A DNA stretch of 64,000 nucleotides from positions 46,500,001 through 46,564,000 of the forward strand of contig OZ231126.1 of NCBI GenBank assembly GCA_965153355.1, read 5' to 3'. The stretch's first letter is position 1, and each line of letters opens with the position of its first letter. Below, piece after piece: positions 45,901 to 51,900 of this stretch. The position numbers were made by a program, and so were the translations under genes. Source of the stretch: Flaccisagitta enflata. Taxonomy: Eukaryota. Under the pieces are notes generated by a model. It was not told where the DNA came from and made no database searches. It saw only the letters and a list, made by a program, of their open reading frames with translations.

Positions 45901-48900
45901 GAAGGCTGATTGGAAGCCTGAGACAATAAATTGAGGCTTACATAGCTTGAGAGGCTCTAATTTGAGGCCTGAGAGGCCAGGTTTGAGGCCTGAGAATTTT
46001 GATTTGAGGCCTGAGAAGCCTAATTTAAGGCCTGAGAGGCCAGGTTTGAGGCCTGAGAAGTTGGATTTGAGGCGTGAGAGGCCAGATTTGAGGCGTGTGA
46101 GGCCAGATTTGAGGTGTGAGATGCTGGATTTGAGGCCTGAGAGGCTGGATTTGAGGCTTGAGAGGTCAGATTTGAGGTCTCAGAGGCCAGATTTGAGGCC
46201 TGAGGGGCCTTATGAGGGGAGGGCCAATGTACAAACGGATGAACAAAAGTCCTGTGTTCTACAGGACTTTGTCCCCTTCAGGGCGGCTGCCCAAAAGGGA
46301 CCAACCGACTGACTGACCAACCGACTGACCAACCAACCAATGGACCGACATAGCAGGGTTTAGAGACGCGTAGCACGCGACCTAAAGATTCTGAACCAGT
46401 TGCCCAAGGGCAATATGTGGTCAGCGATACCTTTTCCTGCTTTGTATATGTTGATAGAAAGTGATGGGTAGCAGGGCAGCTGCCCCAAAGGGCATGATGT
46501 CTTGTAGAACACAGGGGGACTTTTGCCCAATTGAGTTTTTGAGCATCAAGGCTGGGATTTGAGCCTCTAGGCTGAAATTTGAGCCTCGAGGCTGGGATCT
46601 GAGCCTCAAGGCTAGGATTTGAGCCTGAAGGTTGGGATTTGAGTCTCGAGGCTGGGAGCTGAGCCTGAGATGAGGCTTGACTCAGGCTGGGATTGAGCCC
46701 TGAGTCTTGGACCTAAGCGCTGAATCAGTGAGTGCCTCAAGGCTGGGATTAAGCCAACCTGATTTCGCCTTGAGGTCCGGATTTTAGCTGACGCTGGGAT
46801 TTGCTCAGGGGGGGGGAAGGCACACGTACAAATGAGCGAAAATCCCTGTGTTCTACAGGACATTGTCCCCTTCGGGACCGCTGCTCAAAAACTATGATCT
46901 ATTTGAAGGAAAGGCAGATTTAGGATATTCTAGGCCATTTTTTGACCTGTTTTTGGCCTATTAGGACCCAAGTTTTAGCGTCCAAAGCTGTCAAGGAGTA
47001 TATTTGATCTACTTCTGAATTGATGGAGTGAGATACGCAAAAAAAGTTCTGATTAACGATGATCTATTTCATGGAAATGCAGATTTAGGCCATATCAGCC
47101 CAATTTTGGCCTGTTTTTGGCCTGCTATGGCCCCGGTATCAGTTTTCACAGCTCTCAATGAGTATATTTGACCTTATTCTGACTGTGTTCAGTGAGATTG
47201 GCTAAAAAATTCTGAATAACAATGATCTGCCTGATGAAAATGCAGAATTAGGCCATTTTAGCCCATTTTTGGCCTGTTTTTGGCCTGTTATGACCCCGGA
47301 ATCAGTGTTTAAAGCTCTCGATGAGTATTTTTGTCCTAATTCTGACTGGATTGAGTGAGATTTTAAAAAAAGTTCCAAAGAGCTTTAATAATTTAGATGA
47401 AAATGTCGATTTTGGCCATTTTAGGCCATTTTTGGCCTGTTTTTGGCCTGTTATGGCCCCGTTATCAGTTTCCAAAGCTCTCAATGAGTTTGTTTGACCT
47501 AGTTCTAACTTCATTGAGTGAGATTGGCGAAAAAATTCTGAATAACAATGATCTATCAAATGAAAACATCGATTTTGGCCATTTTAGGCCATTTTTGGCC
47601 TGTTTTTGGCCTCTTGTGGCGCTGGTATCAGTTTCCAAAGCTCTCGATGAGTATATTAGATAGGGGGTCTTGAAGGGACTATAATTTTCATAGAAGATTG
47701 CAAAGTCCATTTATGACCAGTTCCTGATTGGGATTGACATCCCTACTAAGAAATTATCATGCTATAAAACTTGATAAAGCACAAATGTCCAAATCCCAGC
47801 TCTATATCTGCCAGATCCACGCTACAACTAAAAACATGGAATTTGGGGAGGTTTGGGCAAAGCTTGCAGGGGTTGTGAGGAGAAATTTATCATCAAAGGG
47901 AGATTTTTAACCTCAACCTGTAAGGGAAGTGTCAAATTGGGAAAAAAGAAAACTAGAACACTTGATATCTAGCCACAGAGGCTACAAAACAAGTGACCTT
48001 TAACCAGTGGATGTGACGCCTTTCTCTCAGAGGGCGCGTTTTTCAATCATGACCTTGGTCTATGAACAAATGAACGGGATTTGGACATTTCAGCAATTAG
48101 CCCTTCAAAATGAGTGCTGATGAAGTCGGGAAAGTTAGATTATCAAACAAACTTTGTCCAATTGATGGTTTAATGACCCCTTTTCCAACCATGACCCCCT
48201 AGCTAACCTTCAAATTTGAGCCTGCAAGCTCCATTTTAAAGCTGTAAGGTCAATTTAAGGATAGGTATTTAGGGGGTCTTGAAGGGACTATAATTTTCAT
48301 AGAAGATTGCAAAGTCCATTTATGACCAGTTCCTGATTGGGATTGACATCCCTACTAAGAAATTATCATGCTATAAAACTTGATAAAGCACAAATGTCCA
48401 AATCCCAGCTCTATATCTGCCAGATCCACGCTACAACTAAAAACATGGAATTTGGGGAGGTTTGGGCAAAGCTTGCAGGGGTTGTGAGGAGAAATTTATC
48501 ATCAAAGGGAGATTTTTAACCTCAACCTGTAAGGGAAGTGTCAAATTGGGAAAAAAGAAAACTAGAACACTTGATATCTAGCCACAGAGGCTACAAAACA
48601 AGTGACCTTTAACCAGTGGATGTGACGCCTTTCTCTCAGAGGGCGCGTTTTTCAATCATGACCTTGGTCTATGAACAAATGAACGGGATTTGGACATTTC
48701 AGCAATTAGCCCTTCAAAATGAGTGCTGATGAAGTCGGGAAAGTTAGATTATCAAACAAACTTTGTCCAATTGATGGTTTAATGACCCCTTTTCCGACCA
48801 TGACCCCCTAGCTAACCTTCAAATTTGAACCTGCAAGCTCCATTTTAAAGCTGTAAGGTCAATTTAAGGATAGGTATTTAGGGGGTCTTGAAGGGACTAT

Positions 48901-51900
48901 AATTTTCATAGAAGATTGCAAAGTCCATTTATGACCAGTTCCTGATTGGGATTGACATCCCTACTAAGAAATTATCATGCTATAAAACTTGATAAAGCAC
49001 AAATGTCCAAATCCCAGCTCTATATCTGCCAGATCCACGCTACAACTAAAAACATGGAATTTGGGGAGGTTTGGGCAAAGCTTGCAGGGGTTGTGAGGAG
49101 AAATTTATCATCAAAGGGAGATTTTTAACCTCAACCTGTAAGGGAAGTGTCAAATTGGGAAAAAAGAAAACTAGAACACTTGATATCTAGCCACAGAGGC
49201 TACAAAACAAGTGACCTTTAACCAGTGGATGTGACGCCTTTCTCTCAGAGGGCGCGTTTTTCAATCATGACCTTGGTCTATGAACAAATGAACGGGATTT
49301 GGACATTTCAGCAATTAGCCCTTCAAAATGAGTGCTGATGAAGTCGGGAAAGTTAGATTATCAAACAAACTTTGTCCAATTGATGGTTTAATGACCCCTT
49401 TTCCGACCATGACCCCCTATATTAGACGTTGTTCTGACTGCATTGAGTGAGATTAGGGAAAAAATCCTGAATAACAATGATATATGAGATGAAAATGCCG
49501 ATTTTGACCATCTTAGGCCATTTTTGGCCTGTTTTTGGCCTGTTGTGGCCCCCGTATTAGTTTTCAAAGCTCTCAATGAGTATATTTGATCTAGTTCTGA
49601 CTGGATTGGGTGAGATAAGTGAAAAAATTCCGAATAACTATGATCTATCTGATAAAAATGCCGATTTTGGCCATTTTGGGCCATTTTTGGCCTGTTTTTG
49701 GCCTGTTAGTACCTCTGTGTCAGCATTCAAAGCTCTCAATGAGTATATTTGTCCTTATTCTGACCTAATTGAGTGTGTTTGGCAAGAAATTCTTAAAAAA
49801 CACTCATTTTTTGAGAAAAAAAGGGGTTTTTTGGCTTTTTTGGGCCATTTTTGGCCTGTTTTTGGCCAGTTACAGTCCCCGAATGGCCGCCAAACTCTCG
49901 TAAACTGTGTATATACTCCAGTTCTTGTTAGGTTCAACTGAAAAACGCAACTGGGTGTCAACAGTGAACTCCAAATAGCTAAAAAGTGCATTTTTACCCT
50001 AAAAATGGCAAAAAATTGGATTTTTGAAAAGGGGGGCCCAAAAAATATTCCAAAATGGAGGTCAGATTCGTGTTCAGCACGAAAAAATATGTCAGAATAG
50101 TGAAGTTCCAGAGCTGTTTGGAAATTTTTACCCTTCACTTTAGTTTCTGCCGCTAAGATCCCTGACTATAACGGGAAGAGAGTAAATGTCAGGAGAAAGT
50201 ATAATATCAGGACAGAGGAAAATCAGAAGAGAGTGAAACAACAAAAAAGGAAGAAAAGGAAGAACAAGGAAAAATGGAACAAGTCAGTCATCCTATTATC
50301 AAATATTAGGGGTGTTCCAAGGGTGATTTTTACCCTTGTACGAATGTAAGCTGAGGTTTATTTACCCTTGTACGAATGTAAGCCAAATGTGAAGAATGTT
50401 CTTGTTCTCTATGATAGGTGGAACAATATCCCTCACTATACCCAAACTGAAAGATATGGAAGAGGGCCATGTGAGCCCTCAATGACTAGTTACTGCGCGC
50501 ATCACTTCTATATGATAGGTGGAACAATATCCCTCGCTATACGACACAGAGCAAGATCCGCCATGCAGATTCCATTCACAAAGGTCAAAAAATGAACTAT
50601 TTGTTTGTGGTCATTTGTGGTCATTAATTTTTTTATTATTATTTGGTTATGTATACTAATCACTTTCCAAGATGTATTAATGCAAAACATCAATTTTTAC
50701 ATTTAATATTGATAATAATTAATAAAAGATCCTTACTTTGGTATGTTTAGGGAATTTCGCAGATATTCTTTAATTTTCTCTAGCTATTTCATTATTGTGA
50801 ATTGCGTTAAGCAATTGACCTATACTCTGCTCGGTGTATTTTTTTTCCTTTTTTTTTGTATCCGAATATTTTTTGCCATCTTTTATTTCTTGAGTTTTTT
50901 TTTCTTTCACTTTTTATCATCTATATTTTTTTTTGCCGTCTTTTACTTTTTATCATCTACATTTTTTTGCTGTCTTTCACGGTTTATCATCTATATTTTT
51001 TCGCCGTCTTTCAGTTTTAGTAGCATTTTTTTCTCGTCTTTCACTAGTACTATTTTTTTTATCTCTTCTTTTTTTGCTGTCTTTCACTTCTTATCATCTA
51101 TATTTTTTTCACCGTCCTTCACTTTTTATCATTTACATTTTTTGCCATCTTTCACTTTTCATTTTCTATATTTTTTCGCCATCCTTCACTTTTTATCATC
51201 TACATTTTTTTGCCCTCTTTCACTTTTCACTTTTCATGATCTATATTTATTTCGCTGTCTTTCATATTTTATCATTTATCAGGTGGGGGAATGCTAAAAT
51301 TATTTTAACACGTTTTAACAGCTTTTAACACGCTCCAAAAATAACAGGTACTGTGTTAAAACGTGCTAAAATGTGTTAAAATAGTGTTAAAACCAAAAAA
51401 GACAAGATTGGGTAAAAATAAGCCTGGTGTTATAACCCTGTTAAAACCGTGTTAAAACCGTGTTAAAACTGTGTTAAAACTGTGTTAAAATTGTGTTAAA
51501 ACTGTGTTAAAACTGTGTTAAAACTGTGTTAAAACTGTGTTAAAACTGTGTTAAAACTGTGTTAAAACTGTGTTAAAACCGTGTTAAAATCGTGTTAAAA
51601 TTATGTTAAAACTGTGGTAAAATTGTGTGACATGACAGTACGTTACTGATGCGGTGATGTAGCACGGATAAAACATTTGATTTTAACGTTCAATTGCTCA
51701 GCAGGGAAAAAAAAATCAGCATGGACTCGGTGATGTATTAATATGTGAAGTTTTTCTACATGCCCATTATTTCATCACAGAAAAAATTGAATGTGATTCA
51801 ACTAATGCTTTCTAATGATCTTAACACAATTTCAACATGAAATTCTCACAGGTTAAACACGGTCTTAACACAATTTTAACATGATTTTAACACGATTTTA

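Follow-up and report, generated by a model that had tools for sequence, protein, structure and literature searches.

In the coral Acropora, the CMITEs (MITEs belong to the non-autonomous class II elements) form arrays of tandem MITEs of full size with highly similar gaps between the units (Wang et al. 2010, PMC2872659). These elements are about 100 bp long, belong to the piggyBac type and make TTAA target site duplications (TSDs). In that account their arrays are ascribed to replication slippage, and insertion of an array as a unit is not among the things it demonstrates. In Drosophila melanogaster, unequal exchange enlarged a dimer of the DNA transposon hobo into a tandem series of about 16, with 8 nt separating the terminal inverted repeats (TIRs) of neighbouring copies; the source describes this junction as the TSD, 8 nt long, that a double insertion produced at a single locus of one strain (McGurk and Barbash 2018, PMC5932611). 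In maize, Ac macrotransposons are excised and, on reinsertion, flanked by TSDs of 8 bp; as these Ac/Ds (hAT) structures are described, two ends in direct orientation cooperate and the interior moves whole inside a single TSD (PMC9910405). They are portrayed as kilobases long, laboratory-born or recent, and low in copy number. A MITE and a tandem repeat are likewise joined in one mobile structure in Xstir/Xmix, miDNA4 and the pearl-type MITEs with an internal satellite, where the number of repeats varies and the repeat is described as internal to one TIR pair (PMC12628747). Plant MITE multimers, adjacent or nested, are frequent as well; the source reports them as independent insertions, its description containing neither one constant linker nor joint movement as a family (PMC5172404).

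The array described here lies in the genome of Flaccisagitta enflata, in a window of 64 kb (the whole stretch of DNA that was analysed). It spans 1759 bp (47661-49419) and is made of three 541-bp units arranged head to tail with two 68-bp spacers between them, all on the forward strand. Unit 1 (47661-48201) has its 5' TIR at 47661-47669 and its 3' TIR at 48193-48201. It is followed by spacer 1 (48202-48269), unit 2 (48270-48810), spacer 2 (48811-48878) and unit 3 (48879-49419), whose 3' TIR (49411-49419) is the exact end of the array. Units 2 and 3 are identical, and unit 1 differs from them at one place only, with A instead of G at unit position 527. Spacer 2 likewise carries one difference from spacer 1, an A for a G at its position 19, so that two periods of 609 bp (unit plus spacer, the repeat spacing in the window) differ at 2 of 609 positions. 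The sequence-only reading had described three near-identical, TIR-bounded 541-bp units joined by the same 68-bp spacer, in an array whose limits are exact unit termini, and the coordinates bear this out to the base. The array is missing from the listing of Tandem Repeats Finder because the longest period handled by the program is 500.

The 9-bp TIRs TAGGGGGTC/GACCCCCTA close each unit. In the 64-kb window TAGGGGGTC occurs six times, three on each strand and always at a unit end, against 0.30 expected, and none of 100 shuffles reached six; the 19-nt start of the unit has three occurrences against 0.02 expected. The presence of TIRs on each unit is no separate observation, being implied by the periodicity together with array limits that fall at unit ends. 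The spacer (37% G+C in spacer 1) is found in two places in the window, both within the array, and a blastn search of the window for further copies of unit or spacer gave chance-level matches only (best E 0.42-1.2). A weak likeness between spacer positions 9-30 and a 20-bp tandem repeat of the surrounding element (46540-46666) is likewise at chance level and is not counted as evidence. The unit is non-coding, and it is not an RNA. Its longest stop-to-stop open reading frame (ORF) has 60 aa, no ORF of at least 35 aa spans the unit-spacer junction, and an Rfam search of the unit returned no match at E<=1. In length (541 bp) and in coding capacity (that same 60-aa ORF), the unit has the properties of a MITE.

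The array lies inside a single target duplication. TATTAGA stands on its left (47654-47660) and on its right (49420-49426), 7 bp long with symmetric ends and up to 9 bp (47652-47660) if the terminal TA is counted as target. On the left, the insertion is bordered by a tandem repeat of 163 bp (46890-47660, forward strand), itself a portion of the right arm in a large inverted-repeat element. To the right (49420-50140, forward strand) the 163-bp repeat goes on and then gives way to the outer right arm, this segment pairing with 37210-37930. The uninterrupted, empty target site is kept in the opposite inverted arm (about 37922-37930, reverse strand), where two 96% arm matches overlap by 9 bp. When the array and one 7-bp copy (1766 bp) are taken out, the arms are colinear and gap-free, 849 bp against 849 bp with 34 mismatches. 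The TIRs coincide exactly with the insertion limits set by the empty site, and the duplication is clean, with no filler. The insertion is of the transposon type, with its TIRs and its target duplication. The one 7-bp duplication around the whole array and the survival of the empty site in the opposite arm had both been claimed from the letters of the window, and both hold. With 9-bp TIRs, a duplication of 7-9 bp and a preserved empty site, the insertion has what is expected of a MITE. With complete elements in direct orientation and the DNA between them inside one TSD, it also has the makeup of a composite or macrotransposon.

The host element itself had been called an Academ in the earlier reading. 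None of the 25 ORFs in or beside it (36824-51325) matches Pfam. A 362-aa ORF in it has 95 relatives, and the few that bear a name are unnamed or hypothetical animal proteins, while the Atlas clusters for this ORF consist of arthropod hypothetical proteins. Pfam and the relatives neither confirm nor exclude the label.

The ends of the unit bear on the kind of transposon involved. Elements of the hAT superfamily make 8-bp TSDs and have short TIRs that begin with YAG or TAG, as in Ac. The TIR TAGGGGGTC has this TAG start, a resemblance of terminal letters only. Symmetric TAG...CTA ends give a TSD of 7 bp; it becomes 8 bp if the 3' end is taken one base shorter, which makes the ends asymmetric, and 9 bp if it is taken two bases shorter. 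Two other 3' ends, among the contigs listed from public sequencing runs, retain the terminal TA, favouring the 7-bp TSD. The hAT-like reading first proposed for the array keeps its terminal letters, while a 7-bp TSD departs from the hAT norm of 8 bp; the ends look hAT-like, and an assignment to the superfamily would rest on that resemblance. KolobokP elements have a TTAA target duplication, and Kolobok is rejected since the duplication here is TATTAGA. Helitrons and Helentrons insert between A and T and have neither TSD nor TIRs; they are rejected as both are present.

LTR elements, the TRIM type included, have TG...CA ends, a primer-binding site, a polypurine tract and a TSD of 4-6 bp. An array of direct repeats with short inverted ends does resemble LTR-internal-LTR arrays, and the 541-bp units could be imagined as LTRs, the 68 bp as an internal part and the array as a product of recombination. 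However, the units begin with TA and end with TA, the start of the spacer is not a TGG-type primer-binding site, the purine stretch ahead of the next unit is only weak, and the TSD is 7-9 bp. A retroelement of this kind is extremely improbable, and the LTR-like architecture seen in the array by the sequence-only reading has to be given up, the ends not being TG...CA and the duplication being too long.

The family to which the array belongs can be followed in the contigs, not long reads, of four public runs (X1, X8, X3 and X5) from three studies. X1 contributes 460 contigs and X8 1146, in identity classes of 99+, 95-99, 90-95 and under 90, and variant positions are listed in the unit and in the spacer alike. 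In X1 and X8 the summed depth of unit and spacer reaches very high values, at least those of the multi-copy 163-bp host repeat alongside. The repeat family is large and old. The spacer is a family-wide part of the repeat, found in all four runs, and is not private to this locus. The possibility that the 68 bp occur only here, which would have spoken against the array as first interpreted, does not survive these runs and two contigs that cross a junction. One of these contigs (X3 record 16, 156 nt with 1 other letter) spans 48166-48300 and holds the last 36 nt of one unit, the spacer, and 31 nt of the next unit. The other, from X5 and thus from a different study, has a joint from 48269 to 47661, that is, one that goes back 609, with 44 nt on its shorter side. 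Bridging was accepted at 31 nt or more on a side; X1 records 5 and 6 also pass from a unit end to spacer sequence but were rejected as bridges, their unit side being only 14 nt.

These junctions also bear on whether the locus has been assembled correctly. Units 2 and 3 are identical, and by sequence a third copy is indistinguishable from an assembly expansion; moreover, the evidence consists of contigs rather than long reads. The locus could then truly be a dimer, or have some other number of units, with three set by the assembler. Against this, the two periods differ at 2 of 609 positions, which means that two units and the spacer between them, at the least, are real, and multimer junctions occur in independent runs. 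An artefact of this kind is considered improbable.

Depth and joints could also be read the other way round, with a 609-bp satellite as the primary form, its pieces scattered by repair-mediated insertion or by reintegration of extrachromosomal circles, and the TIRs and the 7-bp duplication as by-products. The very high depth of unit and spacer in X1 and X8 and the joint that goes back by one period in X5 are what such a satellite would give. However, the limits of the array are exact inverted 9-mers whose six copies in the window are all at unit ends, the target duplication is clean, and colinearity after removal is gap-free. Long arrays also predict a ratio of spacer to unit of about 1. The ratio of summed contig depths is 0.45 in X1, 0.59 in X8, 0.34 in X3 and 0.74 in X5, the spacer being shallower than the unit in all four runs; depth here is a sum over contigs that gives no copy number, and the ratio is only rough. 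Finally, two contigs join the same 3' end (48201) to other DNA. Among the matches listed, loose ends just behind 48201 are found in one contig of X1 (136 nt) and one of X3 (64 nt), both after the terminal TA, and one contig of X8 has other letters before 47658. Since unit ends adjoin other DNA in these contigs, the same termini bound other insertions or arrays. An origin as a satellite first is therefore unlikely, though less so than an assembly error.

The three units of the window are, judged by their shared variants, each other's closest kin and very recently descended from one unit, because a G at 48128 is common to all three and nearly missing from the family, being absent from the contigs of X1, X3 and X5 and making up 0.01% of the depth in X8. 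The G that units 2 and 3 share at unit position 527 is not among the family variants at 5% or more. Recombination as the source of copy number, suggested in the sequence-only reading, fits these shared variants.

The reading we favour, and think somewhat more probable than all others combined, is that a MITE-like non-autonomous DNA transposon became a composite of unit, linker and unit that is moved by its outermost ends and whose copy number shifts by unequal recombination. The starting point would be the 541-bp unit with its 9-bp TIRs, mobilised in trans by a transposase encoded elsewhere, the kind of which can only be surmised. At an earlier locus, two head-to-tail copies separated by 68 bp may have arisen, through two insertions close to each other or through a tandem duplication that took in one copy and its flank. 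With its outermost 5' and 3' ends open to pairing by a transposase, such a composite would then move as one piece in the manner of a macrotransposon and leave a single target duplication. Being a direct repeat, it could gain or lose periods of 609 bp when copies recombine unequally or replication slips. Here, a multimer with two or more units would have entered one arm of the larger inverted-repeat element, where there are now three units. It may have arrived as a ready trimer or as a dimer that then grew in place, the two being indistinguishable here. In the runs, the unit-spacer-unit junctions of X3 and X5 and the deep spacer of all four are seen without outer flanks. Among the window and the run contigs listed there is no complete second locus, nor a solo unit with its own TSD.

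Such a composite has precedent in the Ac macrotransposons, the hobo dimer and the coral MITE arrays. With Ac/Ds it would share the cooperation of two ends in direct orientation, the movement of the interior as a whole and the single TSD; it differs in that its family would consist of small, high-copy elements whose filling of 68 bp is fixed, and its kinship to hAT is a resemblance of ends. The hobo array is likewise a head-to-tail series of a DNA transposon with a short constant sequence between intact TIRs, but here that sequence is 68 bp long and recurs across samples and studies. The likeness to the CMITEs lies in the one array with gaps in which elements and gaps are both highly similar, whereas the present unit is 541 bp long with a TSD of 7-9 bp, and the present array lies inside one TSD with its empty site kept. 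In contrast to the elements with an internal satellite, the period here holds a complete element with both TIRs, and the constant linker sets the array apart from the plant multimers as they are reported.

The linker could also have come about through replication, the second option of the sequence-only reading. An excised unit could close up, together with 68 bp of filler or captured DNA, into a circle of 609 bp, and rolling-circle multimers could then integrate via their TIRs. The linker is constant in length and nearly so in sequence across runs, as it would be after any single origin. The TIR-linker-TIR junction does fold (z = -2.85, a level matched by 1 of 200 shuffles), mostly through pairing of TIR with TIR, whereas the spacer on its own does not stand out from shuffles (z = -0.97, matched by 31 of 200). 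Replication as circles is not known for cut-and-paste elements with TIRs and TSDs, and unequal exchange accounts for the same facts with known steps. Circle replication is thus very unlikely. A bolder reading, also improbable though slightly less so, holds that success as a mobile form belongs to the multimer rather than to the single unit, with arrays made replicatively and sown as the seeds of satellites. The TIR-68 bp-TIR junction would then be a working part, for example a site for transposase binding or replication that may be compared to the joined ends of circular insertion-sequence intermediates. If true, this would explain the conservation of the linker across samples and its presence on about a third to three quarters of the units.

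For the composite moved by its outermost ends, the wide presence of the unit-plus-linker form in the runs would place it, as a natural intermediate, halfway from a jumping gene to satellite DNA, a transition that is usually reconstructed after the fact. The case joins a common tandem family with a fixed linker to a clean, short array inserted by transposition, with its empty site kept. How a dimer becomes an array, and how mobile arrays are, would become directly measurable in one genome. There is also a practical side, in that repeat annotators will call such loci either three MITEs with DNA of no known kind between them or a 609-bp satellite, and either annotation gets the family's copy number and age wrong.

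Searches outside the window and the runs were negative. Exact-pattern scans with the 3' end and a conserved inner stretch had no match in metagenome_contigs or in viral_contigs, and a full-text literature search for the two 9-mers led to primer papers and unrelated ones, none of those listed being about a transposon. Folded as DNA, neither the spacer nor the unit ends nor the unit in full did better than shuffles (z = -0.97, -1.15, -0.13 and -1.28), and the junction with both TIRs was the only fold standing out among those computed. Depth in X5 is uneven along the repeat, at 118 over the 5' part of the unit, 458 over its 3' third and 189 over the spacer, and this 3' part with the spacer could be present in another element too. 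Contigs of X1 and X5 also show a breakpoint at 47987. Within the unit, ATGACCCC occurs twice near the 3' end, at unit positions 513 and 531, and unit 1 contains a perfect 15-bp inverted repeat (47783-47797 and 48076-48090).

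The array consists of three 541-bp units, at 47661-48201, 48270-48810 and 48879-49419, joined by two 68-bp spacers at 48202-48269 and 48811-48878, and these coordinates, proposed in the sequence-only reading, proved exact. Units 2 and 3 show no differences, unit 1 differs from them once, at unit position 527 (A vs G), and the spacers differ only at their position 19 (G in the first, A in the second), which leaves 2 differences between the two 609-base periods. The third copy could be an expansion introduced during assembly, which is quite improbable and would be compatible with the other readings, but the sequence difference between the two periods establishes a dimer as the minimum. 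The array is absent from the Tandem Repeats Finder list because the longest period of that program is 500.

Each unit starts with TAGGGGGTC and finishes with GACCCCCTA. The terminal 9-mer has six copies in the 64-kb window, every one at a unit end, compared with 0.30 expected, and 0 of 100 shuffles gave six. Past these 9 bases, the two ends of the unit show no complementarity, and the core ATGACCCC is found again 18 bp inward of the 3′ end. The unit is 40% G+C, its longest open reading frame (ORF) is at most 60 amino acids, and it has no Rfam match at E ≤ 1. No further copies of unit or spacer were found in the window by blastn and a search for the terminal 9-mer. The middle of the spacer (48214-48237) is 75% like one 20-bp repeat unit of the host element at 46557-46580, a chance-level resemblance (blastn, E 0.42) that might hint at a linker derived from a copy of such an element.

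The host element is the large inverted-repeat element labeled “Academ” in the sequence-only reading. Its inverted arms, at 37210-39940 and 45200-50140, are roughly 2.7-5 kb long, 96% alike in their best-matching parts, and made of tandem repeats, with 163-bp units and, at 39620-39940 and 46538-46666, 20-bp units. The array is embedded in the 163-bp repeat of the right arm. In the arm alignment, 37486-37930 pairs with 49418-49862 (445 nt, 96%) and 37922-38334 with 47248-47660 (413 nt, 96%); the two pairings share 9 nt of the left arm, and this arm carries the uninterrupted target. Deleting the 1759-bp array together with one 7-bp target copy leaves a right arm of 849 bp that aligns to 849 bp in the left arm with no gap and 34 mismatches; the insertion must therefore postdate the arms. 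Divergence is 4% between the arms and only 0.2% between the units.

With symmetric TAG...CTA element ends, the target-site duplication (TSD) is the 7-bp TATTAGA, and it reaches 8 or 9 bp only when the last one or two 3′ bases of the element are assigned to the target. The terminal TA is kept before unrelated DNA in two contigs from other loci, among the matches listed, which favours a length of 7. The proposed hAT affinity holds for the terminal letters but not for the 8-bp TSD if the ends are symmetric, and the element would best be left outside hAT, the likeness being confined to those letters. In size, noncoding nature, terminal inverted repeats (TIRs) and TSD, the unit has the features of a MITE, a small nonautonomous class II element; dispersed solo copies, a further mark of MITEs, were not seen among the matches listed. 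The features of Kolobok, Helitron and LTR elements were not found. LTR retrotransposons and TRIMs are marked by TG..CA ends, a primer-binding site and a characteristic TSD length; an origin of the array as an LTR- or TRIM-like element is hardly credible, as TG..CA ends are missing, the primer-binding-site feature was not found, and the TSD length does not match.

The array is probably a MITE-like nonautonomous cut-and-paste element that has become composite, in the form unit-linker-unit. The composite would have formed at an earlier locus, either when two units inserted close to each other or when one copy was tandemly duplicated along with its flank. The transposase would then pair the outermost 5′ and 3′ ends and move the whole composite, leaving a single TSD, and the 541-bp direct repeats would allow copy number to be altered by unequal recombination. 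Each of these steps has a described precedent. Ac macrotransposons are reported to excise and to reinsert, making TSDs of 8 bp (PMC9910405), a Drosophila hobo dimer is described as having expanded to about 16 copies whose intact TIRs are separated by 8 nt (PMC5932611), and adjacent MITEs are reported as common in plants (PMC5172404). The novelty lies in the combination of a small composite having a fixed 68-bp linker common in the family with a locus where a single TSD bounds the inserted array. Copying of multimers from a 609-bp circle, the other route named in the sequence-only reading beside recombination, is very doubtful. Folding of the spacer by itself is no stronger than that of shuffles (z = -0.97); the unit-spacer-unit junction folds at z = -2.85, mostly through TIR-TIR pairing.

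The stretch was found in 20 of 24 listed runs (14 studies; run index), including two with one organism label and many metagenomes of marine, seawater or aquatic origin. Contigs of four public sequencing runs from three studies (X1, X8, X3 and X5) were compared with 47600-48300, a stretch that opens with 61 bp of flank, continues through unit 1 and spacer 1, and closes with 31 bp of unit 2. Depth summed over contigs (bin means for the unit), a rough guide and not a copy number, was 137,456 for the unit and 61,899 for the spacer in X1 (spacer/unit 0.45), 455,687 and 269,696 in X8 (0.59), 402 and 137 in X3 (0.34), and 257 and 189 in X5 (0.74). The 163-bp flank, itself a multicopy repeat, had summed depths of 64,238, 45,147, 66 and 28, respectively. 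By this rough guide, the linker goes with a large share of the units but not with every one.

With at least 31 nt required on each side, two contigs among the matches listed bridge the junctions. X3 record 16 (156 nt, with 1 other letter) runs from the last 36 nt of a unit through the entire spacer into 31 nt of the next unit, and X5 record 17 (326 nt) joins 48269 to 47661, a backward step of 609 in which the spacer side is 44 nt long. Records 5 and 6 of X1 pass from unit end into spacer with just 14 nt of unit and were not counted. The idea that the spacer occurs at this locus only is thus contradicted by its coverage in all four runs and by the bridging in X3 and X5. Among the matches listed, loose ends begin directly after 48201 in one contig each of X1 (136 nt) and X3 (64 nt), and one X8 contig has other letters ahead of 47658; unit ends adjoin other DNA too. 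A 609-bp satellite as the primary form is unlikely, given the exact TIR ends of the array, its clean TSD, a spacer/unit depth ratio below 1 (a rough guide) and the same 3′ terminus at other junctions. At 47987, a different sequence precedes the remaining unit in three contigs of X1 and one of X5, among the matches listed, and the depth of X5 over the 3′ third of the unit is about 4 times that over the 5′ part. Some 215 bp at the 3′ end may be common to another element, perhaps the parent.

By identity (99+, 95-99, 90-95 and under 90), the contigs number 182, 156, 95 and 27 in X1 and 323, 424, 338 and 61 in X8, with variant positions in unit and spacer alike. Judged from these contigs, this is a large repeat family, and not a young one. 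At 47701, 47711, 47731, 47838, 47899 and 48225, the window letter is absent or below 1% in X8, X3 and X5 and makes up 31-60% of depth in X1, so a window-like subfamily is present at high depth in X1. X1 and X8 carry one organism label and differ sharply in subfamily content, which suggests quick subfamily turnover between individuals or populations.

The G at 48128 is found in all three window units; no contig of X1, X3 or X5 has it, and in X8 its share of the depth is 0.01%. Neither the G that units 2 and 3 have at unit position 527 nor the A of spacer 2 belongs to the family variants of at least 5%. With a private change common to three units and a second common to two, the units descend very recently from one unit, and at least one duplication followed the second change, since units 2 and 3 share it. 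This kinship fits growth by unequal exchange or slippage, here or in a donor array, and agrees equally with insertion as a trimer, as first proposed, and with insertion of a dimer that grew in place. A solo unit as the inserted form is ruled out, for the host DNA at the insertion site does not include the spacer.

None of the 25 ORFs in or beside the host element has a Pfam match, which leaves the label “Academ” tentative. A 362-aa ORF in the interior of the element (42260-43345) has no Pfam domain, and its 95 relatives, likewise without Pfam domains, come mainly from environmental assemblies, with a few from animal genomes; the few named ones are from animals, and the Atlas clusters of the ORF are arthropod hypothetical proteins. 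Elsewhere in the window, Tudor-domain ORFs lie on the minus strand at 29158-36604 and 60575-63426 (E 1.9e-12 to 9e-4); they probably represent exons of a single Tudor-domain gene or of two, or else duplicated copies, and mark the genome as that of an animal. Other foldback-like inverted repeats lie at 51427-52077, 57300-57859 and 59227-59657, the last with 213-nt arms that are 86% complementary and merely 5 nt apart, and all three may represent further MITE or foldback families.
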